From: Candidatus Poriferihabitaceae bacterium
Lineage (GTDB): Bacteria > Pseudomonadota > Gammaproteobacteria > Arenicellales > Poriferihabitantaceae
Length of the DNA: 64,000 nucleotides
Reading direction: 5' to 3'
Assembly: GCA_965208975.1 (NCBI GenBank)
Contig: CBDBQH010000003.1
Coordinates: 1,348,792-1,412,791 of the forward strand
Under the pieces are notes generated by a model, which was not told the DNA's origin, searched no databases, and saw nothing but the letters and a program-made list of their open reading frames with translations. The position numbers and the translations under genes were made by a program. Positions 4,562 to 39,329 of the stretch are shown one piece after another (the stretch's first letter is position 1; the number at the start of each line of letters is the position of its first letter).

Positions 4562-5359
4562 ATGATGGACATACTGATGATCGGCTACGGAGCCATCGGC
4601 CGATACGTTGCAAAACATCTGGCCGACCACTGTGATGCGCGTATTCGATGGGTGCTTTGCCGCCCGGGCCGAAACGCCTGCGTCACCGACCAACTGGGTC
4701 GTGATGTGATTCCCGTCAATAGTCCGGATCAAATCAACGAGCAGATTGGGTTGGCGCTGGAATGCGCCGGACAGGATGCGCTCGCAGAACACGGCCCGGG
4801 CATCCTGGAGCGTGGCATTGACTTGCTGGCTGTTTCGAGCGGCGCTCTGGCCGATGACGCCGTGGCGGCCAGGCTGGAAGAGGGGGCGCAGTCCGGGGGA
4901 GCGAGGCTGCAGATCGTTTCCGGCGCCGTCGGCGCGATTGACGCGCTCTCCGCGGCAAAGATCGGCAGGCTGCAACGCCTGACCTATCGCGGCGCCAAGC
5001 CGCCGCAAAGCTGGCTTGGATCGCATGCGGAAAACGTAGTAGACCTCCGTGATGTCCGTGAACCGGTATGTCATTTCAAGGGTTCAGCGCGCGATGCGGC
5101 GCGACTTTATCCCAAAAATGCCAACATTGCCGCTTCCATCGCTTTGGCTGGACCCGGAATGGATGCGACCCGTGTAGAATTGATTGCTGATCCCGGGATT
5201 TCGTCGAACCGGCATGAATTGGAAGTAGAAGGCGATTTTGGACGTTTCAGCTTCAGGATAGAAGGCAATCCTCTTCCTGACAATCCCCGATCATCCGCAT
5301 TGACCGCCATGAGTATTGTCCGTGCAATTTGCAATCGACAGGCCAAAATTTTTATATGA
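4562..5359 (+). CDS. L-aspartate dehydrogenase family protein (NadX-like)
   Basis: 265 aa. N-terminal Rossmann IGYGAIG, conserved GAVGAIDALSAA and ARLYPKNANIAAS blocks typical of bacterial aspartate dehydrogenases. Confidence 0.75.
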   Translation: MMDILMIGYGAIGRYVAKHLADHCDARIRWVLCRPGRNACVTDQLGRDVIPVNSPDQINEQIGLALECAGQDALAEHGPGILERGIDLLAVSSGALADDAVAARLEEGAQSGGARLQIVSGAVGAIDALSAAKIGRLQRLTYRGAKPPQSWLGSHAENVVDLRDVREPVCHFKGSARDAARLYPKNANIAASIALAGPGMDATRVELIADPGISSNRHELEVEGDFGRFSFRIEGNPLPDNPRSSALTAMSIVRAICNRQAKIFI

Positions 5360-9019: not shown

Positions 9020-9153
9020 GCTGACTCAGGGCAGTCCCAATCCCGCGATAGGCGAATAGTAAGAGTATACCCTATAAAGTATCCCGGACAGCATAGTGAC
9101 ACACGGCCAAAAATCTGGTATATAGCGAATAAGTTAAATCGGAGAAACATACA

Positions 9154-9854
9154 ATGAAATCTGTACCCCCCCCCCCCCCCCCCCCCCCGATATAAAGGGC
9201 AGAAATAAAACAGACTTACAGAAACGACAACGAATCATCAAAGGTCTGGCCGTTGGCGGACTAGCCGTTACGGCATGGCAGAAACCGATTGTAAACAGTG
9301 TGCTGTTGCCGGCTCATGCACAGCCATCAGGAAACACAACAGCAGACCCGGCAAACCCGTCCGGGCAGACAGGACAGACCGAGCAGGGACAAACCAATCA
9401 GGAGCAAACAGCCGTACCGCAACAAAACCAACAGCAACCAATAGGCAATCCCAATCATGACCGATTGGAGCCATTGCCAGCAGGGGAGACGCTTAACATC
9501 ACACCCCGCAACGCCGAGCAGTGCAGAACGATCCAGATAGTAAGATATGAACTTGCTGATCGGTATCGCAGTCCGGGACAGGTTGATAAAGACTACTGGA
9601 TCAAAATAACAGGGATACAAACGCCGACAAGCAGCACGCGCCCGGATCCGTTGGCTTTAAGATTAGTAGATATAAATTTTGGAACTGTAATCCCTTTAGA
9701 TACATCCATAGACTCGAGATCAGGCAATAAAAACGCGCATCCTGCCAAAGATTCGGGAATGTTCACGGCCTTTTTTCGTAACAGTGAATTCCGACTAGGG
9801 TATATACAATACAACATAAGGGACTTCACCCTTATTTGTGACGGGACGCGCTGA
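9154..9854 (+). CDS. secreted hypothetical protein whose ATG (9154) is out of frame with the body (frame of 9189-9854) because of a C23 tract; candidate phase-variable gene, OFF as sequenced
   Basis: RBS GGAG 9141-9144, ATG 9154, MKSV, then C23. The ATG frame stops at TAA 9193-9195. The downstream frame is open from 9138 to 9854 and encodes KRQRIIKGLAVGGLAVTAWQKPIVNSVLLPAHA/Q, a signal-peptide-like segment, before the GTG 9300 given in the ORF track. Confidence 0.6.
9166..9188 (+). repeat. homopolymeric C23 tract
   Basis: Counted directly: 5 C (9166-9170) + 10 C (9171-9180) + 8 C (9181-9188). Confidence 0.95.
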
Positions 9855-9914
9855 TAGCGGGTTTATCCAAGACAAGGGCTGGTGGTCGCCATCTGCTACC
9901 CTCTCCCGCGTCTG

Positions 9915-9942
9915 GCGGGCGGGCACAAGACCCGCCCCTACG
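9915..9942 (+). repeat. REP-like hairpin unit gcgggcgggcacaagacccgcccctacg (stem GGGCGGG/CCCGCCC)
   Basis: 28-nt sequence identical to 10064-10091. Confidence 0.85.
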
Positions 9943-10006
9943 ATAATGGGTGGCGCGGGAATGATGTTTCGGATTATGGATGTCGTGAATTGCAGATTCC
10001 ATATAT

Positions 10007-10034
10007 CGTAGGGGCGCCCCTTGTGGGTGCCCGC
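10007..10034 (-). repeat. REP-like unit, inverted-orientation variant (cgtaggggcgccccttgtgggtgcccgc)
   Basis: Its reverse complement, gcgggcacccacaaggggcgcccctacg, shares the GCGGGC...CACAAG...GCCCCTACG frame with the flanking units. Confidence 0.7.
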
Positions 10035-10063
10035 ATTATTTTCGTATACGGTCAATGACGGTT

Positions 10064-10091
10064 GCGGGCGGGCACAAGACCCGCCCCTACG
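10064..10091 (+). repeat. REP-like hairpin unit, second direct copy
   Basis: Identical to 9915-9942. Confidence 0.85.
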
Positions 10092-10138
10092 CAACATTCA
10101 ATCGCCGCACCCAAAGATCAAACAACATCTCACACGTC

Positions 10139-23179: not shown

Positions 23180-24559
23180 TCAGTACATATGAGACTCAAC
23201 TTGAGTCTCTTTGCAGGAATCTGATACGGAATTTCCATATTTGTACGATAGTTTCGTAAGCCTCCCTGTCAAGTGGAAAGTTCGCAAGCATCCTGGCTTT
23301 TCCAGGTAGAAAATATCCTGATAAATCGTCTTATTCCAAAATCTGAATCCAGGATTCATCAAATCTGATTGATTCCAGGACGGCCTCTCTATCCAGTTGT
23401 GGCGGTTCCTTGATTTTAATTGCCAGACGCTTTTTGGGGACATCTTCAATAATGGTGAATTGCGCCCGGAAATGAGACGGATTTTTGAGACAGTGGAAGG
23501 TCGGCGATTCTTTGCCGTTTTGGCTCCCCATGCTGTTTGCTGCAAAACAATATCATCAATCACCAGCTTATCGGTTTCCTCTTGAGAAAATGTCGACACC
23601 CAATCTGTGGCTTGTATCAGATTCCTGATGACTGCCTGCGCCACAGGTACAGGAAGACTATTGCCCGCCTGCTTCCTGGTTTGCGAATAGTTACAAACAA
23701 TCCTGGCCTCTTCGGGAAATCCCTGGAGCCGCAGCATTTCCCGCACAGTCAGCCTTCTTTCACCGTTCACCAGAAGGTAGTTGTAAGAAGCGCCCGCGCG
23801 CAATGCACACGAAAACGGATAGGCGCTGATATGTCCGGCCTTGTTCTCATGCCAGATGGTCGGTTCTTTCGTAGGTTTTTGCTTGCTTAGTCTCTTCCGC
23901 CTGATATGACCGGAGGCAAAATATTCTTCGGGAACATCTTTTTCCAGGATTTCACTCAATGGACGCATCGGGATGTTTCCAGCAGGCCAGTTGAAATAGC
24001 GTGGGGAGCGGAAGCCAACAATAAAGACACGTTCCCTTTTCTGTGGCAGACCAAAATCCAGAGCGTTCAATACCTTATAAGTTGTGTAGTATCCCAACTC
24101 GTCCAGAGTTTCCAAAATCCGATTCAGGGTTTGTCCCTTGCTGTGCCCAACCAGCAACTTCACATTTTCCAGCACAAACGCCGCCGGTTTCTTCTCTGCC
24201 AATATGCGCGCTATATCAAAGAACAATGTCCCTCTGGTATCGTCAAAGCCGCGCATATTGCCGATGATACTGAACGGCTGGCATGGGAAACCAGCCAGCA
24301 GAATGTCGTGGTCGGGGATGTCCTGCGCGGCTATCTCCATAATATCGCCGTGTGGGGTTTCGCCAAAGTTCTCTGCGTAGGCTCTCTGGCATTCCTGATC
24401 AATCTCACTGCTGAAGACACACTCGACATCCGCACCAAGATCGGCGCCCGCATTTTGCATGGCATAACGAAACCCGCCAATACCGGCAAACAGGTCGATA
24501 AATCGGACGGTTTTTTTCTTCCCTGTATATCCGGTATTCATGACCGGAATATAGCACAT
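23180..24559 (-). CDS. dcm: DNA (cytosine-5)-methyltransferase with a ~130-aa C-terminal extension of unknown function
   Basis: Motif I DLFAGIGG, IV GFPCQPFS, VI ENV, VIII QKRERVF, IX TVREMLRLQGFP, X GNSLPVPV (about residue 300-310). The ORF then continues ~130 aa with no recognised motif. Confidence 0.9.
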   Translation of the reverse strand: MCYIPVMNTGYTGKKKTVRFIDLFAGIGGFRYAMQNAGADLGADVECVFSSEIDQECQRAYAENFGETPHGDIMEIAAQDIPDHDILLAGFPCQPFSIIGNMRGFDDTRGTLFFDIARILAEKKPAAFVLENVKLLVGHSKGQTLNRILETLDELGYYTTYKVLNALDFGLPQKRERVFIVGFRSPRYFNWPAGNIPMRPLSEILEKDVPEEYFASGHIRRKRLSKQKPTKEPTIWHENKAGHISAYPFSCALRAGASYNYLLVNGERRLTVREMLRLQGFPEEARIVCNYSQTRKQAGNSLPVPVAQAVIRNLIQATDWVSTFSQEETDKLVIDDIVLQQTAWGAKTAKNRRPSTVSKIRLISGRNSPLLKMSPKSVWQLKSRNRHNWIERPSWNQSDLMNPGFRFWNKTIYQDIFYLEKPGCLRTFHLTGRLTKLSYKYGNSVSDSCKETQVESHMY

Positions 24560-29780: not shown

Positions 29781-29876
29781 GCGCTTTGGTAAAGGACAGG
29801 CGCTCCCGGCAATAAAGTCTCTCACTGATTCATCCGGCAACCTTGATGGACCTGCTGCATAAGTTCTCACAGAATT

Positions 29877-31727
29877 ATGGATCGAACCCGGAAATATCAT
29901 GAGAGGCTGATCGGATTGCTCAAAACCGATGTGCGCTTCATTGATGATGAAGGGGAGCTGGTCAAGGCGGCAGTGATTGACCGCGCCTGGAAAATGGACC
30001 ACGGCCTGATGAGACTGTTGCTTGGCGATGAAAGAATAAAGACACAGTTCTTTGATGAAATTGAAGGGCATTGGCTTTTCAATACGAACACATTCATTGA
30101 CTACCTCTCCGATAAAAACTTCCTGGCCAATTCATATACCCGATTCCGCAACCGGATTGGTTTGAACATTGACAATAAATTCCTGCGACAGCGGGGCGAA
30201 GTATCCCTGGTTTGGCCATACAAGGATTGCGTACTGGAAGGCGGACAGACCAAAGAGGAGGAAAAACGCAAGGAGATTTTCTTCAATGAAATTCTGGCAC
30301 AGGACGAGATCGACCGATTACTCGACCCGAAAGTAATCACCAACTGGAAACGCTATACGATTGACGGTGATCAGAAAGTTACCGGGATCAGGCGGGATGA
30401 TGCCGGCGTAATCCGGGAAAATCTGATTATCAAGGGCAACAACCTGCTGGCATTACATACACTGAAAAAACAGTTCCGGGGCAAGGTAAAGCTGATTTAT
30501 ATTGATCCTCCATTTAATACAGAACGAGACAGTTTTACCTATAATGACAGTTTTACACATTCAGCATGGCTAACTTTTATACGGAGCCGACTTCTGGTTG
30601 CTTATGATCTTTTAAGGGCCGATGGAAATATTTTTGTACATGTTGACAACAATGAATCTCATTACATGAAGATCGTGCTGGATGAAGTTTTTGGAAGGGA
30701 AAATTTTGTAAATGAAATTATTTGGCACAAAGGAAGAGAAGGGGGTAGTTCGAGGTCACACTCAAAGAGTTCAGCAATGCCAACTGAATATCAGAATATT
30801 TTCATTTTTGCGAAAAACAAGTCATCGAGATTTTGGAACCCACCACTAGGCCCATATAAAAAATCCACTATTGGCCGAATTGAGAAAGATTCAAAAGGCT
30901 GGTTTTATACGAGGGGTCGAATGGGTAGAACACCAGCCGAATGGGAATTGCAAGCAGGATCAGGATTGAAAACATACATTTCTGACAGAGTTGATCTTGA
31001 TAAAGACAGAGTCATAGAAACCCTGACTGCACCCAATGCAAAATATGTAGCCATAGGAGATGTTTGGGGAAGAGAATTAGTAAAAAATTCAAAGGAAGCA
31101 AACTACGACACATCTAAACCAGAAGGATTGCTGAAGATGATCATTGAGGCAGCATCTAATCCGGGTGATTTAGTACTTGATTTCTTTCTTGGGAGTGGGA
31201 CGACTATGGCAGTATGCTTAAAATTGGATAGGAGATGTATAGGTATAGAACAGTTAGAAGGAGGAATAAACGCACTGATTCCGAGACTAAAAAATGTCAT
31301 CGGAAAAAATCTACAACAGAAGGAAAGCTTCCTCGAAGAAATTGAATGCGACACTGGCGGCATCTCCAAATCCGTAAACTGGCAAGGCGGTGGCGATTTT
31401 ATCTACTGTAAGTTGATGCGATACAACGAAGTCTGGATGGATAAAATCCAGGCCGGACGGTCTTCCGAGGAACTTGTAAAACTCTGGAAAGACATTGCTG
31501 AAAACTCCTTCCTGAACTGGTATGTGAACCCTGAAATCCCGGCGGAGGCGCTGACTGATTTTATTGCCATCGGGAAAAAGGAAAACGGGCTGGAGAAGCA
31601 AAAAACATTATTAGCGGAACTGCTGAACAAAAATCAACTCTACGTCAATCTTTCGGAAATAGACGACCAGGATTTTGCCGTCAACGAGGAAGATAAAGCA
31701 TTGAACAGAAAATTCTATGGATACTAA
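29877..31727 (+). CDS. mod: type III restriction-modification methyltransferase (Mod)
   Basis: 616 aa. N-terminal block NSYTRFRNRIGL, motif IV IYIDPPFNT before motif I LVLDFFLGSGTT (beta-class order), and the flanking AWLTFIRSRL...DGNIFVHVD typical of Mod. Confidence 0.9.
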   Translation: MDRTRKYHERLIGLLKTDVRFIDDEGELVKAAVIDRAWKMDHGLMRLLLGDERIKTQFFDEIEGHWLFNTNTFIDYLSDKNFLANSYTRFRNRIGLNIDNKFLRQRGEVSLVWPYKDCVLEGGQTKEEEKRKEIFFNEILAQDEIDRLLDPKVITNWKRYTIDGDQKVTGIRRDDAGVIRENLIIKGNNLLALHTLKKQFRGKVKLIYIDPPFNTERDSFTYNDSFTHSAWLTFIRSRLLVAYDLLRADGNIFVHVDNNESHYMKIVLDEVFGRENFVNEIIWHKGREGGSSRSHSKSSAMPTEYQNIFIFAKNKSSRFWNPPLGPYKKSTIGRIEKDSKGWFYTRGRMGRTPAEWELQAGSGLKTYISDRVDLDKDRVIETLTAPNAKYVAIGDVWGRELVKNSKEANYDTSKPEGLLKMIIEAASNPGDLVLDFFLGSGTTMAVCLKLDRRCIGIEQLEGGINALIPRLKNVIGKNLQQKESFLEEIECDTGGISKSVNWQGGGDFIYCKLMRYNEVWMDKIQAGRSSEELVKLWKDIAENSFLNWYVNPEIPAEALTDFIAIGKKENGLEKQKTLLAELLNKNQLYVNLSEIDDQDFAVNEEDKALNRKFYGY

Positions 31728-31773
31728 ACCGCTAATGACACAGGAATATTCAGCGCATCATCAGGAGTAAATT

Positions 31774-32001
31774 ATGAGAACAGAAATACAAACTACCCAA
31801 GATATATGGCCCATGCTGACACCCGTTGTTTTCGTTCCCCATGCGGATAATGAATACCAACGGTTGGTGGCTGTACTGGATAATTTGATTGATGTGGTGG
31901 GCGAAGATGAAAGCCACCCCCTGGCCTCACTCATGGAGGTCATTGGCGTGTTGATAGAAAAATATGAGGATGACCACGTTCCTGAACTGACGGAGGCATA
32001 A
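31774..32001 (+). CDS. small protein resembling only the N-terminal (non-HTH) part of HigA-type antitoxins
   Basis: 75 aa. Strong SD AGGAG 7 nt upstream of the ATG. LTPVVFVPHADNEYQRLVAVLDNLIDVVGEDESHPLASLMEVIGVLIEKYE parallels the E. coli HigA N-terminal region. No room for an HTH before res. Confidence 0.5.
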   Translation: MRTEIQTTQDIWPMLTPVVFVPHADNEYQRLVAVLDNLIDVVGEDESHPLASLMEVIGVLIEKYEDDHVPELTEA

Positions 32002-32052
32002 CAATCAGAAGACGGGCTCATTGGGAAACCAATCATTTCACCGGGCGATAAG

Positions 32053-34623
32053 ATGGCTGACAAGTATTTGTATGAGATACTGGATTCCGTCTCCCAAATG
32101 GGATTGTTAAAGAAAGAAATCCCCCGTTATCTCACGGATAATCTGAACCCCGCCCTTCAACTGCGTCCCTATCAGGAAGAAGTATTCGCCCGTTTTTTCC
32201 ACTGTCTTGCCAATGATTTTCCCGGCAAGAATCAGCCGTTGCATTTTCTGTTCAACATGGCAACTGGCAGTGGCAAAACCCTGATCATGGCGGGGTTGAT
32301 TCTCTATCTGTACGGGAAAGGCTATCGAAACTTTCTGTTTTTTGTCAACGCCTCGAATATCATTGAAAAGACAAAGGATAACTTCCTCAATCCGCTCTCA
32401 TCCAAATATCTGTTCAACGAAAACATCCATTACGGTACAAAAAGAATTGAGATAGCTCCAGTCACCAATTTTGAAGGCGCCAACGAAAACGGCATCAACA
32501 TCTGTTTTACCACTATCCAAAAACTGCATTCCAGTCTGACTATTGATAAAGAAAACGCGTTGACCTTTGAGGATTTCAGTAGAGGAAAAACCGTCCTTCT
32601 CGCAGATGAAGCCCACCACATCAACGTAAACACGAGGGCCGGAAAGAAATTATTTGAGAGTTGGGAAAATACGGTAGAACGCATCTTTATTCAGCACAAA
32701 AATAATTTACTGCTGGAATTTACCGCCACCCTGGATTACACCGATACAAATCTTGTCGATAAATACCGTAACAAAGTGTTATACCGATATGACCTGCGAC
32801 AGTTCCGCAATGACGGCTATTCCAAAGACGTTTGCATTGTTCAGGCAGATTTTGAGGAGAAAGACCGGATCATACAGGCGCTTATCCTCAACCAGTACAA
32901 GCAGGAAGTTGCAGCGAAATACACTATCAATTGCAAGCCGGTCATCCTGTTCAAGGCACAAAGAACAATTGCCCAATCCAAAGAGAACAAAGCCAGATTC
33001 CATAAGATCATTGAGAATCTTTCAGGCGATGACATTGACCGGATTTGGGACCAGTCAAACCTGCCACTGGTAAAGAGTGCATTTACTTTCTTCAAAGAAA
33101 ATCATATCTCTGCCAATCAGCTGGCGAAAAGGCTTCGCAGAGAATTTGATGAGAGTCGTTGTATTTCCGTAAATGAAGAAAAAGAAAAAGAAAATCAACA
33201 GATATTACTCAATACTCTGGAAGAACGGGATAACCATATTCGAGCCATTTTTGCAGTACAGAAACTGAATGAGGGTTGGGATGTCCTGAACCTGTTCGAT
33301 ATTGTCCGTTGTTATACGAATCGGGATGCAAAGGCTGGGAAACCGGGAAAAACAACTATTGCCGAAGCGCAATTAATCGGACGCGGAGCGCGTTATTTCC
33401 CTTTTGTTACCAACGACAACCCCGACCGATACCGGCGGAAATTCGACCAGAATCTGACTTCTGAACTGCGTGTGCTGGAAGAGATGCACTACCACAGTAT
33501 AAATGATTCCCGCTATATCTCTGAGTTACGTACTGCGTTGATTCAGGAAGGTATGGTAGATGAACGAGAGGTGACCAAGCCGCTCACACTAAAGGATTCG
33601 TTCAAGGCCACAGAGTTTTACCGGCATGGATTGGTCTACCTGAACAGCCGGGTCAGAAACCGATATGAAAAGGTTTACTCATTTTCTGATATGGGCGTTT
33701 CGTTACAAAACTATCAATATACGCTTGCAACCGGCCGGGGAGCATCTCAGTCCATCCTCGATAACAACGACAGTGTCAGTCAGGTCAAAGAAGCAGGCTC
33801 ACAAGAAATCAAAGTAAGGGATATTCCTGTTCACATAGTCAGAAATGCCATTGCCCAAAATTCTTTCTTTTCTTTCAACTCCATTAAAAAATATTTTCCT
33901 CATATTGAATCGGTGCGCCAATTCATTGATTCGGATGACTATCTCGGGGGGTTGGCAATCACATTTCAGGGAAATTTCCCCAACCCGTTACCTAATAAGG
34001 TCCAACTGGATGCGGTAACGGGTCTGCTCGGGGAAATCGAATCTGAGATGCGTAGAAATGCTACGGAATACAGGGGAACAGAAACATTCAAGCCATACGG
34101 GGTTGGTTCTGTATTCACGGCTAAAACCCTCAAATTGATTGAAGGCAGTGAAAGGGCCAATGGTGACGATCCGTTTGTTTCCGACAGGGAATGGTATGTC
34201 TTCAGCGCAAACTACGGGACCGGAGAGGAAAAGGCTTTTGTCCGGATGCTTGACCGCCAGATGGGTACACTGAAAGAAAAATACGATGAAATTTACCTGG
34301 TCCGCAATGAAAGGCATTTCAAGATTTACAGTTTTGACGACGGACAGGCGTTTGAACCGGATTTTGTTCTTGCTCTACGGGAGAAAAATGGAAATATGCT
34401 TACCTACCAGATGTTTGTTGAGCCTAAAGGAAAACATCTAAAAGATCATGACAAGTGGAAAGAGGAGTTTCTGCAACAAATTACGGACAAATTCAAGGGA
34501 AAAACACTGGAATTCAAAACGAAAATCAAGACCCAAAAATACAGGCTGGTGGGGGTTCCGTTTTATAACAATGAAGATGAAAACAGATTTAAGGAAAGTT
34601 TGTATGAGGCGGTGGGAATGTAG
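32053..34623 (+). CDS. res: type III restriction enzyme Res subunit (SF2 helicase + PD-(D/E)XK nuclease)
   Basis: 856 aa. Motif I MATGSGKT, II LLADEAHH, III FTAT, VI QLIGRGAR. C-terminal nuclease FEPDFVL...FVEPKG. Confidence 0.9.
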   Translation: MADKYLYEILDSVSQMGLLKKEIPRYLTDNLNPALQLRPYQEEVFARFFHCLANDFPGKNQPLHFLFNMATGSGKTLIMAGLILYLYGKGYRNFLFFVNASNIIEKTKDNFLNPLSSKYLFNENIHYGTKRIEIAPVTNFEGANENGINICFTTIQKLHSSLTIDKENALTFEDFSRGKTVLLADEAHHINVNTRAGKKLFESWENTVERIFIQHKNNLLLEFTATLDYTDTNLVDKYRNKVLYRYDLRQFRNDGYSKDVCIVQADFEEKDRIIQALILNQYKQEVAAKYTINCKPVILFKAQRTIAQSKENKARFHKIIENLSGDDIDRIWDQSNLPLVKSAFTFFKENHISANQLAKRLRREFDESRCISVNEEKEKENQQILLNTLEERDNHIRAIFAVQKLNEGWDVLNLFDIVRCYTNRDAKAGKPGKTTIAEAQLIGRGARYFPFVTNDNPDRYRRKFDQNLTSELRVLEEMHYHSINDSRYISELRTALIQEGMVDEREVTKPLTLKDSFKATEFYRHGLVYLNSRVRNRYEKVYSFSDMGVSLQNYQYTLATGRGASQSILDNNDSVSQVKEAGSQEIKVRDIPVHIVRNAIAQNSFFSFNSIKKYFPHIESVRQFIDSDDYLGGLAITFQGNFPNPLPNKVQLDAVTGLLGEIESEMRRNATEYRGTETFKPYGVGSVFTAKTLKLIEGSERANGDDPFVSDREWYVFSANYGTGEEKAFVRMLDRQMGTLKEKYDEIYLVRNERHFKIYSFDDGQAFEPDFVLALREKNGNMLTYQMFVEPKGKHLKDHDKWKEEFLQQITDKFKGKTLEFKTKIKTQKYRLVGVPFYNNEDENRFKESLYEAVGM

Positions 34624-34812
34624 GGCTGTTGACTAATACTTTGGTTAATGAATCTGGTAAAAGCTTGTTGGGCAATGTGAAATGTTGATACCACCAAGGT
34701 TAAAAAGAGCGACAGGCCCACGATAGTATAGGACCATGCACCCCGATGGAGTATTATCAACAACTCACACTCAGTGCCTGAGTTTCATATGCACTGAACC
34801 CGAACACCTTCG

Positions 34813-34841
34813 TTGCATACATAGAGTACCACCCACATAAT
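34813..34841 (+). promoter_or_regulatory. candidate sigma70 promoter of the TIR-SLATT pair (TTGCAT-N17-CATAAT)
   Basis: TTGCAT 34813-34818, 17-nt spacer, CATAAT 34836-34841, about 43 nt upstream of ATG 34884, which has SD AAGGGGA. Confidence 0.45.
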
Positions 34842-34883
34842 ATTCGGGAATGTGAAAATTTCGTCCAAAATAAGGGGATATAA

Positions 34884-35312
34884 ATGAGTACAAGACAAAT
34901 CCACGTTTTTATTAGTCATTCATGGGCTTACTCAAATCATTATCAAACTCTAGCTGATTGGATTTTTAATCAAAAGTGGAGCGTGGAGCAGGCATCCCTG
35001 GATTTTCGAGATTATTCTGTTCCACAAAGTGACCCAGTCCATAATGCAAATAATGACACGCAATTAAGACAAGCGCTTTACAATCAAATATCACGAAGCC
35101 ACGTTATTGTCATCCCAACTGGAATGTATGCCTCTTACAGTAAGTGGATACAAAAAGAGATTGATGGAGCTAGCCATTATAGAAAGCCTGTATTGGCAGT
35201 TAACCCCTGGGGCGCTCAAAGAACTTCTTCATATGTTAAAGATGTAGCAGACAAAATCGTTGGCTGGAATGCCAAGACTGTTGTTGGCGGGATTTGGGAA
35301 TTGTACAAGTGA
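34884..35312 (+). CDS. TIR-like domain protein (DUF1863/ThsB-like)
   Basis: 142 aa. IHVFISHSW start strand, VIVIPTGMYASYSKWIQKEIDGA containing the S-x-W-x(3)-E glutamate context used by TIR NADases, KPVLAVNPWG. Confidence 0.8.
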   Translation: MSTRQIHVFISHSWAYSNHYQTLADWIFNQKWSVEQASLDFRDYSVPQSDPVHNANNDTQLRQALYNQISRSHVIVIPTGMYASYSKWIQKEIDGASHYRKPVLAVNPWGAQRTSSYVKDVADKIVGWNAKTVVGGIWELYK

Positions 35313-36196
35313 TGAACGAATTTAAAATAAAATCTAGTGAAATGCCTGGATTGTATCAGTCTGCTGACCGGGCATCTCTTGATGCTCAAAGTAGTTACTT
35401 TACGGGCTTGCGATGGTATCTCGTCTTGCTGATTTGTGCTGCTTTTATTTCGTATGCTCGGCCCAATGACCTTATAGGTGCACTACTATCAGCAAGTCTA
35501 TTTTTAATCACTCTTGGAATTCTTGTGTTTATTCGTGTCAAAAAGCCTGATGACATTTGGTATAACGGCAGAGCTGTTGCTGAGTCAGTTAAAACAAGGG
35601 CTTGGCGATGGATGATGAGAGCTGAGCCTTATGAAGACCACCAAAACATTGAAATAGTTTCTAAACAATTCATTAACGATCTAAAAGCAATACTTAGTCA
35701 AAATAAAAGCTTATCCCATTCTCTTCAATCAACGGATGCTGTGGATGATCCTATTTCCCAGCCGATGAAGGATATAAGGACACTTTCCGTGTCTGAGAGA
35801 TTAGGAATATATGTAGATCAAAGAATTCAGAATCAAGTCAATTGGTATTGGACTAAATCCGGCTTTAATAAGCGTCGAGCCCAGCAATGGTTTTGGGTGT
35901 CCGTATTTTTGCATGCGTCAGCAATAGCCATGTTGTTATATCGGATTAAAGATCCAACCTTCTCTCTTCCGGTAGAGGTGGTTGCTACCTCAGCAGGAGC
36001 GGTATTAACTTGGTTACAAGCCAAAAAGCATAACGAACTAAATTCCGCATACGCTCTTGCTGCACATGAAATTGTATTGATAAAGGGAGAGTCTGCTTCT
36101 GTTTGTCGTGAACAGCAGCTTTCGGAATATGTGGTAAATAGTGAGGCAGCTTTCTCACGAGAACATACTCAATGGGTTGCTCGAAAAGGAGACTAG
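35312..36196 (+). CDS. SLATT/DUF4231-type membrane protein with two tandem 2-TM modules
   Basis: ATG overlaps the TIR stop (TGATG). Module 1 has TMs WYLVLLICAAFISY and LLSASLFLITLGILVFI followed by WYNGRAVAESVKTRAWRWMMRAEPY. Module 2 has RIQNQVNWYWTKSGFNKRRAQQWFWVSVFLHASAIAMLLY plus a further TM, then ELNSAYALAAHEI. Confidence 0.75.
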   Translation: MNEFKIKSSEMPGLYQSADRASLDAQSSYFTGLRWYLVLLICAAFISYARPNDLIGALLSASLFLITLGILVFIRVKKPDDIWYNGRAVAESVKTRAWRWMMRAEPYEDHQNIEIVSKQFINDLKAILSQNKSLSHSLQSTDAVDDPISQPMKDIRTLSVSERLGIYVDQRIQNQVNWYWTKSGFNKRRAQQWFWVSVFLHASAIAMLLYRIKDPTFSLPVEVVATSAGAVLTWLQAKKHNELNSAYALAAHEIVLIKGESASVCREQQLSEYVVNSEAAFSREHTQWVARKGD

Positions 36197-36348
36197 TTGC
36201 TAACAAAGCACTGCTACCGGAAAAAATTTTCTACTACTCACTAAACGGGCGTCCAGAACCATCCGAACAAGGTTAGCCCCATTGTTTCCAAAATCTGATG
36301 TTTTTGTGTCATCCTGAAAGATGATGGTGCGCGCAGATGTACGGCGTT

Positions 36349-36378
36349 TTGTATTATTAGAAACTAGTGCTGTATGAT
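36349..36378 (+). promoter_or_regulatory. candidate sigma70 promoter of the OLD-type gene (TTGTAT-N18-TATGAT)
   Basis: TTGTAT 36349-36354, 18-nt spacer, TATGAT 36373-36378, 26 nt upstream of ATG 36405. Confidence 0.4.
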
Positions 36379-36404
36379 GCACGGTTTTGTATCGGTTGCA
36401 GAAT

Positions 36405-38377
36405 ATGAAATTAACACACGCTCGGGTCCAAAACTTCCGTTCTATTCTTGATACAGGGAAGTTTTCTATAAACGACCTTTGTTGCCTTGTTGGGAAAAAT
36501 GAGGCAGGTAAAACTGCAACACTCACTGCTGTACAGTCAATTCTTCCATACGGGGATCCACAAACGTATTTTGATGTAACGGAAGACTACCCCCGTCGTT
36601 TTGCTACACGCTACCACGAAAGGCATAAAAATTCTGAGGCTGTTGTGGTAGAGACATGGTGGCAGCTTTGTGATGAGGGGTATGAACGGCTTTGTGAAGA
36701 ATTTAGCGAGGACGCTGTAAGGTCTCGTGAATTTCGCATTTACAAAAAATATAACACCGAAAATACTATATGGGATTTTGATCTGGATGAAGCTGTTGTA
36801 GTAGCGAGTATTCTTAAAGCCCATAGGTTGAATGCTACTGAGCAAGCCAGTCTTTCAAAATGTTCGACTATTTTGCAAGTTTTGGAAAAAATTGAAACCC
36901 GTGAGGAACCAACTGAAAAATTGAGAGCGATTGCTAAACATTTCGAGAACTATCAAAGATCAATTCAGTATAAAGCAACCGAATTGGTTGGTGATCTGGT
37001 TCCGACCTTCTTTTATACGTCTCATTATGACCGAATGAGCGGTAAATTGTCGATACAGAAAATTGCAGACAGAAAATTGCAGAGGACAAAAAAAATGATA
37101 ATGTTGATCCAGAAGATGAAATATTCCTGGATTTTCTGCGTCTTGCCGGAACTTCGCTGGAGGAATTGAATGAGGTGTCACGGTTCGAAGAACTCAACGC
37201 CAAATGTGAAGCAGCCTCCGCGGATATCACGGATCAAATATTCAAATACTGGTCTCAAAATGACAATCTTGAGGTAGAAGTAAAGCTCAGCGAGGGGCGA
37301 CCGGGCGATCCAGCACCTTTTAATTCTGGCGCCGTGGCTCGAGCTCGAGTATATAATCGGCTGCACCGGGCGAGTGTTTCCTTTTCTGATCGCAGTGCAG
37401 GTTTTGTCTGGTTTTTCTCCTTTCTTGTCCAGTTTGCCATGATGAGGCGCAATACAAGCAATGTAATCATACTACTTGACGAGCCTGGCCTGACGCTACA
37501 CGGAAAGGCACAAGCTGACTTGCTTCGCTATATTGAAGCTGAGCTTCTGCCTGACCACCAGGTTGTTTACACAACCCATTCCCCATTCATGGTTCCGCCG
37601 CAGAGGTTAGCTGATTGTCGTGTAGTTGAAGACGTTGTCAAACGCGACGAGCGAGACCGTCCTGTATCTGAAGGAACCAAGATTACAGATGACGCGATGA
37701 GCACAGACAAGGACACATTGTTCCCGTTACAAGGTGCGCTTGGCTACTCCGTCACTCAATCACTTTTCGTCGGTAAGAACAGCCTCCTTGTTGAAGGCAC
37801 ATCCGACATCCTGTATTTGCAGGCGCTATCGAGTGAAATTGAAAAGCGCGGTGGGATGTCACTCGACCCGAAATGGACACTCTGCCCTGCCGGGGGCATA
37901 GACAACCTGAGGCCATTCGTTTCCTTGTTCGCTGGAAACCACCTCAACATCGCGGTTCTTTCGGATCAAGCACAAGGAGATAAAAGTAAGGTTGAACGGC
38001 TCAGGAGAAGCGAAATTCTTGCCGCTGAACGGTTCCATACGATCGCTGAATTGCTTGACGAAGATGAAGCAGATATTGAGGACTTGTTTGTATCTGAATT
38101 GTTCTGTCGGATCGTAAATGAAGCTTATGGGTTAGAAGGAAATCATGCAGTTACGCCAGAAAAATTGAACGAAGTCGCAAATACAGAAAGGCAGGTTAAA
38201 CGGGTGGAGGCTTATTTCAATCGTCTGCCAGAAGCCATTCCAACTTTCAGCCATTTTCGTCCAGCAGAGTGGCTCATTCACAATGGAGAGATTTTGTCTG
38301 AGAAATCGGATTCGGTAAAAGGCACGCTTGAAAGAGCAGAGAAAATTTTTAAGATTTACAACGAAATATTGATATAG
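36405..38377 (+). pseudogene. OLD-family-type ABC ATPase + TOPRIM nuclease gene, frameshifted by a 14-bp tandem duplication
   Basis: Walker A VGKNEAGKT (N-terminal ORF 36387/36405-37169). Walker B IILLDEPG, H-loop TTHSP and TOPRIM-like LLVEGTSDILYL (ORF 37166-38377). Deleting one 14-bp copy joins the two ORFs in frame, giving ...GKLSIQKIAEDKKNDNVDPEDEIFLDFLRLAGTSLEELNEVSRF... Confidence 0.8.
37055..37083 (+). repeat. 14-bp tandem duplication (cagaaaattgcaga x2; period-14 identity spans 29 nt)
   Basis: 37056-37069 equals 37070-37083. The preceding base also matches. Confidence 0.95.
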
Positions 38378-39329
38378 CTGTCCCACTATAATTACAAAGC
38401 CCACCCGCCCCCGGCCCCAGATGTTCCTCTTTGCGCTCTTCCGCTAACTGAACCTGTCTCCCCCGCTCTGCAAACCGCGCCCTGTCCTGTTGTGAGCGCT
38501 TGCCGTGACATTTCGGGCAACTCACGCCCGGCTGATAATACTCGCTGGCCTTGTCTTTCTCCGTAACCGGCATGCGGCAGCCGTGGCACTGGTCATAACG
38601 GCCCCGGTTCAAATCATGGTCAACCGTGACCCGTTCATCGAACACGAAACATTCGCCCCGCCATCGGGACTCCGATACCGGGACGGTTGCGAGATAATTC
38701 AGGATTCCGCCTTGCAGATGATATACGGATTCAAAGCCGTTCTGTTTCAGGAAGGCCGTGGCTTTTTCGCAACGGATGCCGCCGGTGCAATACATGGCGA
38801 TCTTTTTGTGTGTTTCCGGGTCCAGGTTTTCCAATGCGTATTGCGGAAATTCCCTGAAATTGGTGGTATGGGGATTGACCGCATTTTCAAAGCGCCCCAC
38901 CTCGATCTCGTATTCGTTGCGGGTATCGACCACAAGCGTTTCGGGGTCTTCCAGCAGCGCATTCCAGTCTTCGGGATCAATATAGGTCCCCGCCAGTACC
39001 TGCGGATCAATATCTTCGACCCCCATGGTGACGATTTCTTCTTTCAGCTTGACCCGGGTGCGTTTGAACGGCATCCGGTCGGTCCCGGACTGCTTGTATT
39101 CAATACCGGAAAAACCGGCTTGCCCCTCCAGCCACTTCAGAAATTGATCAATCGCTTGCCGCTCACCGGCGATCGTGCCATTGATCCCTTCTTTCGCAAG
39201 CAACAAGGTGCCGGTGAGCGACAAGCCGGATAATTGATCCAGCATCGGTTGTTGCAGGGAAACGTAATGGGCAAGCGGCGTGAATTTATAAAATGTGCAA
39301 ACCACCAGGTTGTTTGCAGGTTCTGTCAT
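38349..39329 (-). CDS. trhO: rhodanese-domain tRNA uridine(34) hydroxylase (UPF0176/YceA family)
   Basis: 326 aa. N-terminus VCTFYKF..., EGINGTIAG, rhodanese active-site loop CTGGIRCEK, C-terminal Cys cluster CHGC...CPKCHG. Confidence 0.85.
   Translation of the reverse strand: MTEPANNLVVCTFYKFTPLAHYVSLQQPMLDQLSGLSLTGTLLLAKEGINGTIAGERQAIDQFLKWLEGQAGFSGIEYKQSGTDRMPFKRTRVKLKEEIVTMGVEDIDPQVLAGTYIDPEDWNALLEDPETLVVDTRNEYEIEVGRFENAVNPHTTNFREFPQYALENLDPETHKKIAMYCTGGIRCEKATAFLKQNGFESVYHLQGGILNYLATVPVSESRWRGECFVFDERVTVDHDLNRGRYDQCHGCRMPVTEKDKASEYYQPGVSCPKCHGKRSQQDRARFAERGRQVQLAEERKEEHLGPGAGGLCNYSGTAISIFRCKS

Follow-up and report, generated by a model that had tools for sequence, protein, structure and literature searches.

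How should a gene be read when 23 consecutive cytosines stand between its start codon and its export leader and leave the two in different reading frames? The question is raised by a locus at positions 9141–9857 of a 64-kb stretch of DNA (64,000 nucleotides; hereafter the window) from an uncultured marine gammaproteobacterium. A preliminary description had put the locus forward as a slipped-strand contingency candidate, OFF as sequenced, and this proposal was supported in all of its testable parts, namely the anatomy of the locus, the heads of its paralogues and the leader. In our view this is probably a genuine contingency switch, which acts by translational phase variation through slipped-strand mispairing. 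Its elements are listed here in order, C24 denoting a tract of 24 cytosines.

9141–9144, + strand: Shine-Dalgarno sequence GGAG, 9 nt ahead of the start codon.
9154–9165, + strand: start codon and head, ATG AAA TCT GTA (MKSV); MKSV is also the N-terminus of the related proteins P0001–P0004 and P0007 described below.
9166–9188, + strand: C23 homopolymer, the proposed slipped-strand switch, coding for poly-proline; read from the sequence, with 5–10 prolines at this place in the paralogues.
9193–9195, + strand: TAA that closes the ATG frame at 23 C; the product is the 13-residue peptide MKSVPPPPPPPPI.
9189–9320, + strand: leader, residues 13–56 of the C24 product, DIKGRNKTDLQKRQRIIKGLAVGGLAVTAWQKPIVNSVLLPAHA; similar to leaders of the twin-arginine translocation (Tat) pathway, with cleavage predicted after AHA.
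9300–9302, + strand: GTG, the earliest possible start in the body frame; its use would leave the leader without any of its n- and h-region.
9321–9464, + strand: low-complexity linker rich in Q, T, N, G and P, residues 57–104 of the C24 product; assigned from composition and from a predicted local distance difference test score (pLDDT) below 50.
9465–9851, + strand: C-terminal β-sandwich domain (C-domain) with the conserved cysteines C124 and C229; assigned from an AlphaFold2 model and the family alignment.
9852–9857, + strand: stop codons TGA TAG, read from the sequence.

Each coordinate given in the preliminary description (GGAG, ATG, C tract, the TAA at 9193 and the open body frame) was confirmed on the sequence. 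At 23 C, the ATG frame reads MKSV, eight prolines (seven CCC codons and one CCG), isoleucine and TAA, with the tract occupying codons 5–12. The body frame, to which the codon at 9189 belongs, runs without a stop from 9138 up to the TGA at 9852–9854 and includes a body of 221 codons. Editing the tract in silico yielded continuous open reading frames (ORFs) of 232 aa at 21 C and 233 aa at 24 C, in agreement with the earlier statement that these two lengths join the ATG to the body, with 233 aa at C24. Tracts of 22, 23 and 25 C stop early; the in-frame lengths are 21, 24 and 27, and 23 is out of frame. The frame set by the tract length is the sole lesion in the gene, the body being otherwise intact. 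As had also been claimed, the body frame contains no ATG, GTG or TTG between 9138 and the GTG at 9300, and offers only ATC, ATA, ATT and CTG upstream of it. GTG 9300 itself was rejected as the real start because it would remove the n- and h-regions that every family member retains.

The repeat is simple, lies in the 5′ coding region and is far longer than expected by chance: it is the only homopolymer of more than 8 nt within the window, and a C run of at least 23 has a chance expectation of about 1e-9 per window. Gain or loss of repeat units toggles the gene between a full-length ORF and an early stop, with no other lesion involved. In the proposed mechanism, slipped-strand mispairing during replication would add or remove cytosines. 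Whenever the tract held a multiple of three (21, 24, 27 and so on), the ATG would be joined to leader, linker and β-sandwich, and the protein would be exported and its leader cut after LPAHA. At all other lengths, including the assembled 23, translation would end after 13 residues. The C run codes for a proline stretch in a tolerant N-terminal extension ahead of the export leader, behind the gene's own ribosome-binding site and ATG. Length change at high rate is established behaviour for long G/C homopolymers, and by analogy we infer that the tract changes length at a high rate in vivo. The product would presumably be exported and cleaved, and may have an adaptive role.

The head of the gene recurs elsewhere in the same genome. 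Relatives were sought with the C24 product against 5.8 billion protein clusters, which returned seven proteins, P0001–P0007, all encoded on two contigs (2,100,580 and 821,201 bp). The DctM, LptG, PepA and YecR-like proteins of the window are exact entries of the 2,100,580-bp contig, which holds six of the seven relatives, and P0001–P0007 are therefore paralogues in the window's own genome. Five of them begin with MKSV, a proline run and DIKGRNKTDLQKR, the run being P10 in P0001, P5 in P0002, P6 in both P0003 and P0007, and Y followed by P5 in P0004. The proline counts at the tract site accordingly differ between paralogues of one genome (5, 5 after Tyr, 6, 6 and 10, at the protein level). P0005 and P0006 start with MNQE..KTDLQKR, just before the leader, and lack the prolines.

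The C24 product aligns with the paralogues over its full length, from Met1 to the C-terminal GTR, and this alignment, together with the MKSV heads of the paralogues, identifies ATG 9154 as the true start. The arrangement of MKSV, poly-proline and leader, which had been proposed from the window copy, has thus turned out to be genuine, being shared by five paralogues of the same genome; to judge by these protein sequences, the head is a real, conserved and length-variable module. Its prolines are presumably encoded by C runs, in which case 5–10 Pro would correspond to 15–30 C, with up to about 30 C in P0001.

Counting the window copy, the genome has at least six headed copies in a family of at least eight members, and the window gene is one member of a multigene family. 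The poly-proline paralogues are 91–92% identical to the window copy in head and leader, 75–87% in the linker and 56–60% in the C-domain. Such a conserved leader joined to a diverged domain is, at the level of the predicted proteins, the pattern seen in variable surface-protein families. The C-domains of P0003 and P0007 are identical, and the four substitutions and the 7-aa indel (TADPANP) that separate the two proteins are confined to leader and linker; this points to a recent duplication or a gene conversion that left the N-terminal parts mosaic, and would involve recombination among the copies. If every headed copy switched on its own, the genome could express different subsets of the family and thus combine its secreted or surface proteins in many ways. 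The window copy is the only head seen out of frame, and a protein search is blind to out-of-frame copies. Its product is missing from a collection of 15 billion proteins in any form; out-of-frame copies are therefore invisible, and the visible ON:OFF ratio (at least 5 to at least 1) is biased.

P0004 displays a second type of lesion in the family, its head being in frame and its C-domain leaving the family frame, with truncation at 196 aa. The tail of this protein, ..IPVRYIHRDRNGH, resembles what the C-domain region of the window gene encodes in an alternative frame (NPFRYIHR, frame beginning at 9137).

The frameshift of the window copy might also mark a decaying pseudogene, that is, a redundant paralogue lost at a fragile site without regulatory meaning. 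The redundancy of a family of this size, the further frameshift inside the C-domain of P0004 and the apparent lack of an annotated protein at the window locus in the source annotation all fit such decay. Yet no stop interrupts the 221 codons of the body, its alignment with the paralogues continues to the final GTR, the ribosome-binding site and ATG are intact, and the only lesion is the length of a tract that reverts at a high rate. We regard decay as extremely improbable.

The second half of the argument concerns the leader. A family profile was searched against 1.84 billion representative proteins (E ≤ 1e-3) and gave at least 438 matches; the following counts of motifs, lengths and passengers rest on the best 154 of these 438. 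Outside the paralogues, only the leader was matched (profile positions ~14–70). What had been noted as a signal peptide behind the tract is a conserved leader of export type with LPAHA/Q at its end, shared by several hundred proteins. Its c-region is near-invariant (W.KP.V.SV.LPAHAQTS): a P-x-H-A motif occurs in 150 of the 154 best matches, in the form LPAHAQTS in 76 and LPAHAQTT in 23. An RR pair lies upstream in 124 of 150 leader relatives, the remainder having mostly KR, and the median leader length is ~51 aa. Three distant RR members (P0015, P0017 and P0045) pass the curated cut-off of the Tat signal model TIGR01409. The passengers are diverse and often adhesin-like, with Big_9, cadherin-like, LapA and tandem-95 repeats. 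Across the wider family the N-terminal extension ahead of the leader varies freely in length, and a variable proline run is therefore tolerated there; a proline run at this position was found only in the five paralogues among the best 154 matches. About a quarter of the best leader matches (within P0008–P0154) are only 52–100 aa long and consist of the leader and a short tail.

The window leader reads L-Q-K-R-Q-R-I-I-K, lacks an RR pair and departs from the twin-arginine motif (S/T)-R-R-x-F-L-K. Its n-region is basic (7 K/R versus 2 D/E), its hydrophobic core GLAVGGLAVTA has a mean Kyte-Doolittle value of 1.77, its c-region carries a basic residue and it ends with an A-H-A/Q cleavage-type site. 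The likeness to Tat signal peptides lies in the length of the leader (~44 aa after the prolines), the basic n-region, the weakly hydrophobic core rich in Gly, Ala and Thr, the basic c-region residue and the A-x-A cleavage site; in addition, the wider leader family mostly shows RR with h-h-K after it. In contrast to Tat signal peptides, the window protein and an Arenicellales-type subgroup have KRQR, KRKQ or KRQQ and give no Tat-model match, and the W.KP.V.SV.LPAHAQTS c-region is much more conserved here. On these predicted features the leader belongs to a Tat-like family and not to generic Sec leaders, with KRQR in the window copy itself; this copy may be exported via either Tat or Sec. Conservation of the c-region is far above that of ordinary signal peptides and may reflect a step of processing or sorting dedicated to these leaders. 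Neither Pfam nor NCBIfam has a model for this leader family, and a literature search found no paper containing LPAHAQ.

The mature part of the product comprises a disordered linker rich in Q, T and N (pLDDT <50) and a β-sandwich of ~125 aa, somewhat larger than the C-terminal domain of ~110 aa given in the preliminary description. In the AlphaFold2 model its strands span residues 103–220, with pLDDT values mostly of 80–90. In the family alignment C124 does not vary, and a cysteine stands opposite C229 in every paralogue that reaches the C-terminus, which is all except the truncated P0004. The conserved leader, the AHA/Q site, the conserved cysteine pair and the adhesin-like passengers of leader relatives are compatible with a secreted or surface-exposed product. 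Pfam and NCBIfam hold no family for the window product, and its match to FAM101 (E 0.033) was dismissed as noise. No sequence match for the C-domain was found in the PDB, where the best fold match (E 0.087) was to generic β-sandwiches.

The nearest relatives of the leader, with the variant KTDLQKRQ(Q/R)IIK, occur in two Arenicellales metagenome-assembled genomes (MAGs), L001 and L002, where they are joined to unrelated passenger domains. The order Arenicellales includes sponge-symbiont families. A contig scan with the family alignment, in a collection that excluded the window's genome, returned only these two loci, which share the leader and have no poly-C head. A metagenome DNA scan for ATGAARTCNGTN followed by C9 gave seven unrelated chance matches without tblastn similarity, and no paper that connects Arenicellales to phase variation came up in a literature search. 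In L002 (OZ220708.1), a C11 run at 4755–4765 lies 223 nt upstream of the ATG of the leader-family gene (4989), with a short hairpin after it. No other run in that 10-kb locus reaches 8 nt; the C11 run may be a tract of the promoter type or may be there by chance.

Several observations weigh against a switching locus. The heads of the paralogues are known at the protein level only, and their prolines could be encoded by stable mixed CCN codons. Every visible paralogue head is in frame and P0003 and P0007 share P6, which a stable, functional poly-proline segment would predict as well. No relative outside this genome carries a poly-C head, and no orthologous alleles were found. The window protein, lacking a canonical RR, gives no match to the Tat models TIGR01409 and PF10518 at E ≤ 1. 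Lastly, a second frameshift in the window, at the A8 run 37088–37095, is likewise cured by one additional nucleotide, which is a signature of under-calling.

The A8 break bears on the trust that can be placed in the length of the C tract. If the assembly or the sequencing were at fault, the real tract would be in frame, most simply at 24 C, with 23 a homopolymer under-call and the gene an ordinary constitutive member of its family. Homopolymer length is the main error of long reads, and the MAG-type assembly with its very long contigs (2.10 and 0.82 Mb) suggests that long reads were used; the in-frame heads of all five visible paralogues would also be expected from such an artefact. However, among the 277 homopolymer runs of at least 5 nt in the window, only C23 and A8 break a gene and a G8 run sits in an intact gene, so that the assembly is generally accurate. 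In five cases, tracts equivalent to 15–30 C seem to have been assembled in frame. Homopolymer error, which the preliminary description had named as its main alternative, gains some weight from the A8 frameshift. Moreover, a modal tract of 24 C would still be hypermutable, which would remove the label "OFF as sequenced" but not "phase-variable". Overall, we judge an artefact to be rather unlikely.

The A8 run is the longest A run of the window and splits an OLD/AriA/GajA-like ATPase-Toprim defence gene (36387–38377) into two overlapping ORFs. With A9 at 37088, a single ORF of 663 aa results and the AriA match spans the break; the site is either a real frameshift, possibly switchable, or an under-call. 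A screen of the 277 homopolymers for ±1 changes that restore a frame flagged five sites, four of which merely fuse neighbouring genes, leaving A8 37088 as the only real split gene.

Known biochemistry suggests how the tract would further affect both states of a phase-variation switch. CCC-C sites and tRNA-Pro are prone to frameshifting (PMC7577736, PMC4519876), and homopolymer runs of at least ~9 nt cause transcriptional slippage, the documented cases being runs of A and T (PMC1088944). Since a run of 23 C is prone to RNA-polymerase slippage and tRNA-Pro frameshifting, the OFF state is probably leaky. Since consecutive prolines stall ribosomes and require elongation factor P (EF-P; PMC4176338, PMC5811046), the ON state, with 7–10 consecutive prolines near the start, should be EF-P-dependent and its expression EF-P-sensitive.

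The same properties would favour recoding, in which C23 is the functional form of the gene. Full-length protein would then arise by RNA-polymerase slippage or by a −1 ribosome shift on CCC during the poly-proline stall, its output set by slippage efficiency and EF-P, and a −1 shift anywhere in the run would enter the body frame with perfect CCC re-pairing. Programmed recoding sites, however, keep their out-of-frame arrangement across homologues. Here that arrangement is not conserved: only one of the six heads is out of frame, and the tract is missing from two paralogues. No stimulatory RNA structure was found, the fold of 9100–9260 (z = 0.39) being no better than that of shuffled sequences, and efficient transcriptional slippage is documented for A/T but not for C runs (PMC1088944). 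Recoding as the sole explanation is very improbable and is best seen as leakiness on top of a DNA switch.

The switching mechanism proposed here is classical. What is unusual is the organism, the length of the tract, its position ahead of a Tat-like leader and its occurrence in a multicopy family. In Neisseria, the repeats of opa (11–12 loci, CTCTT units) and pilC (a G run) lie inside the leader-coding region; leaders are conserved, mature domains vary, and copies switch independently by slipped-strand mispairing. The window family shares with these systems a repeat in the leader-coding region and a multigene organisation with a conserved leader and variable domains. Whereas opa has pentamer repeats and encodes outer-membrane β-barrel adhesins of a human pathogen, the window gene combines a mononucleotide run, a Tat-like leader and a small soluble-type β-sandwich in an uncultured marine gammaproteobacterium. 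General context on contingency genes is available elsewhere (PMC5084427).

The sialidase gene nanH3 of Gardnerella piotii carries a poly-C tract of 8–14 C by the signal-peptide region, which varies within cultures (10.1101/2020.09.16.300947). Both genes have a C homopolymer in the 5′ coding region adjoining the part that codes for the signal peptide of a secreted or surface protein, in both the in-frame lengths are three apart, and in both annotators lose the signal peptide at out-of-frame lengths. However, the nanH3 tract lies just after the signal peptide, unlike the 23 C here, which stand ahead of the leader from codon 5 onwards. Variation of nanH3 was demonstrated experimentally in cultures, whereas the present locus is known from assembled sequence, and nanH3 is a single gene in contrast to the multiple headed copies of this genome.

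Long C runs also control surface-structure genes in Bordetella, another Gram-negative proteobacterium, where G/C tracts are the polymorphic class; bvgS alternates between C6 and C7, and the fim promoters have tracts of up to C19 (fim3) (PMC1891110). The longest C tracts of Bordetella lie in promoters and act on transcription via spacing, whereas the tract described here is coding and would act on the reading frame. At 23 C, it also exceeds the C19 quoted for fim3.

The window gene lies between the TRAP transporter operon dctPQM, on the same strand, and a gene for a YecR-like lipoprotein. The neighbouring chromosome is core in character, with lptFG, pepA, holC, valS, fabA/B, clpXP, tig and nuo as well as a dehydrogenase gene. 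Three further elements flank the gene.

9096–9124, + strand: possible sigma-70-like promoter, GTGACA at 9096–9101 and TATATA at 9119–9124 with a spacing of 17 nt; a weak candidate found by eye.
9915–10103, no strand assigned: palindromic repeats similar to repetitive extragenic palindromic (REP) elements; a 28-nt unit GCGGGCGGGCACAAGACCCGCCCCTACG at 9915–9942 and 10064–10091, with an inverted copy at 10004–10034.
10012–10032, no strand assigned: terminator-like hairpin within the inverted REP-like copy.

A consensus promoter scan returned no site upstream of the window gene. Between the end of dctM (9019) and the gene no terminator-like site was found, and transcription could therefore also run through from the TRAP operon. 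Inverted repeats are absent upstream, and only the REP-like elements occur downstream. Accordingly, an invertible promoter (inverton) was rejected, as no inverted repeats flank the promoter region and the neighbours are core genes, and a mobile-element context was rejected because the surroundings consist of core chromosomal genes. A structured RNA element was also discarded, given no Rfam match upstream and the z value of the 9100–9260 fold quoted above.

Elsewhere in the window, a low-GC island at ~29800–38400 (GC 0.42–0.45 versus ~0.53 elsewhere) looks like a defence island. Besides the split ATPase, it contains a type III restriction-modification pair (mod 29877–31727, res 32053–34623) and a SLATT_3/SLATT_1 effector gene (35294–36196). 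No repeat tract was seen in mod. A gene for a C-5 cytosine DNA methyltransferase (23180–24559, − strand) is surrounded by housekeeping genes, and no restriction gene seems to adjoin it.

A broader picture can be drawn, tentatively, from the locus and its relatives. The poly-C head may be a dedicated, duplicated switching module, by which a probably host-associated bacterium of the sponge-type, Arenicellales-like kind would vary at least six exported β-sandwich proteins copy by copy. Its coding homopolymers, with 23 C here and an inferred maximum of ~30 C, would exceed the longest tract of the survey in PMC1891110 (C19), the ON state would be throttled by 5–10 EF-P-dependent prolines, and W.KP.V.SV.LPAHAQTS may represent an undescribed Tat-derived export or sorting signal of hundreds of proteins, many of them no more than 50–100 aa long. 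We hold this combined picture as possible but doubtful.

Nearly all known contingency loci come from cultured bacteria that live as pathogens or as commensals of animals. If the locus does switch, stochastic variation of the surface or the secretome would extend to environmental or invertebrate-associated symbionts, and the β-sandwich family would be a concrete target for studies of interactions with hosts, phages or grazers. As protein catalogues lose such genes when they are out of frame, long-read MAGs need a re-annotation that takes homopolymers into account, and a tract of this length is a good test case for telling population heterogeneity from long-read homopolymer error. The leader family, with at least 438 proteins and no curated model, is a separate lead.

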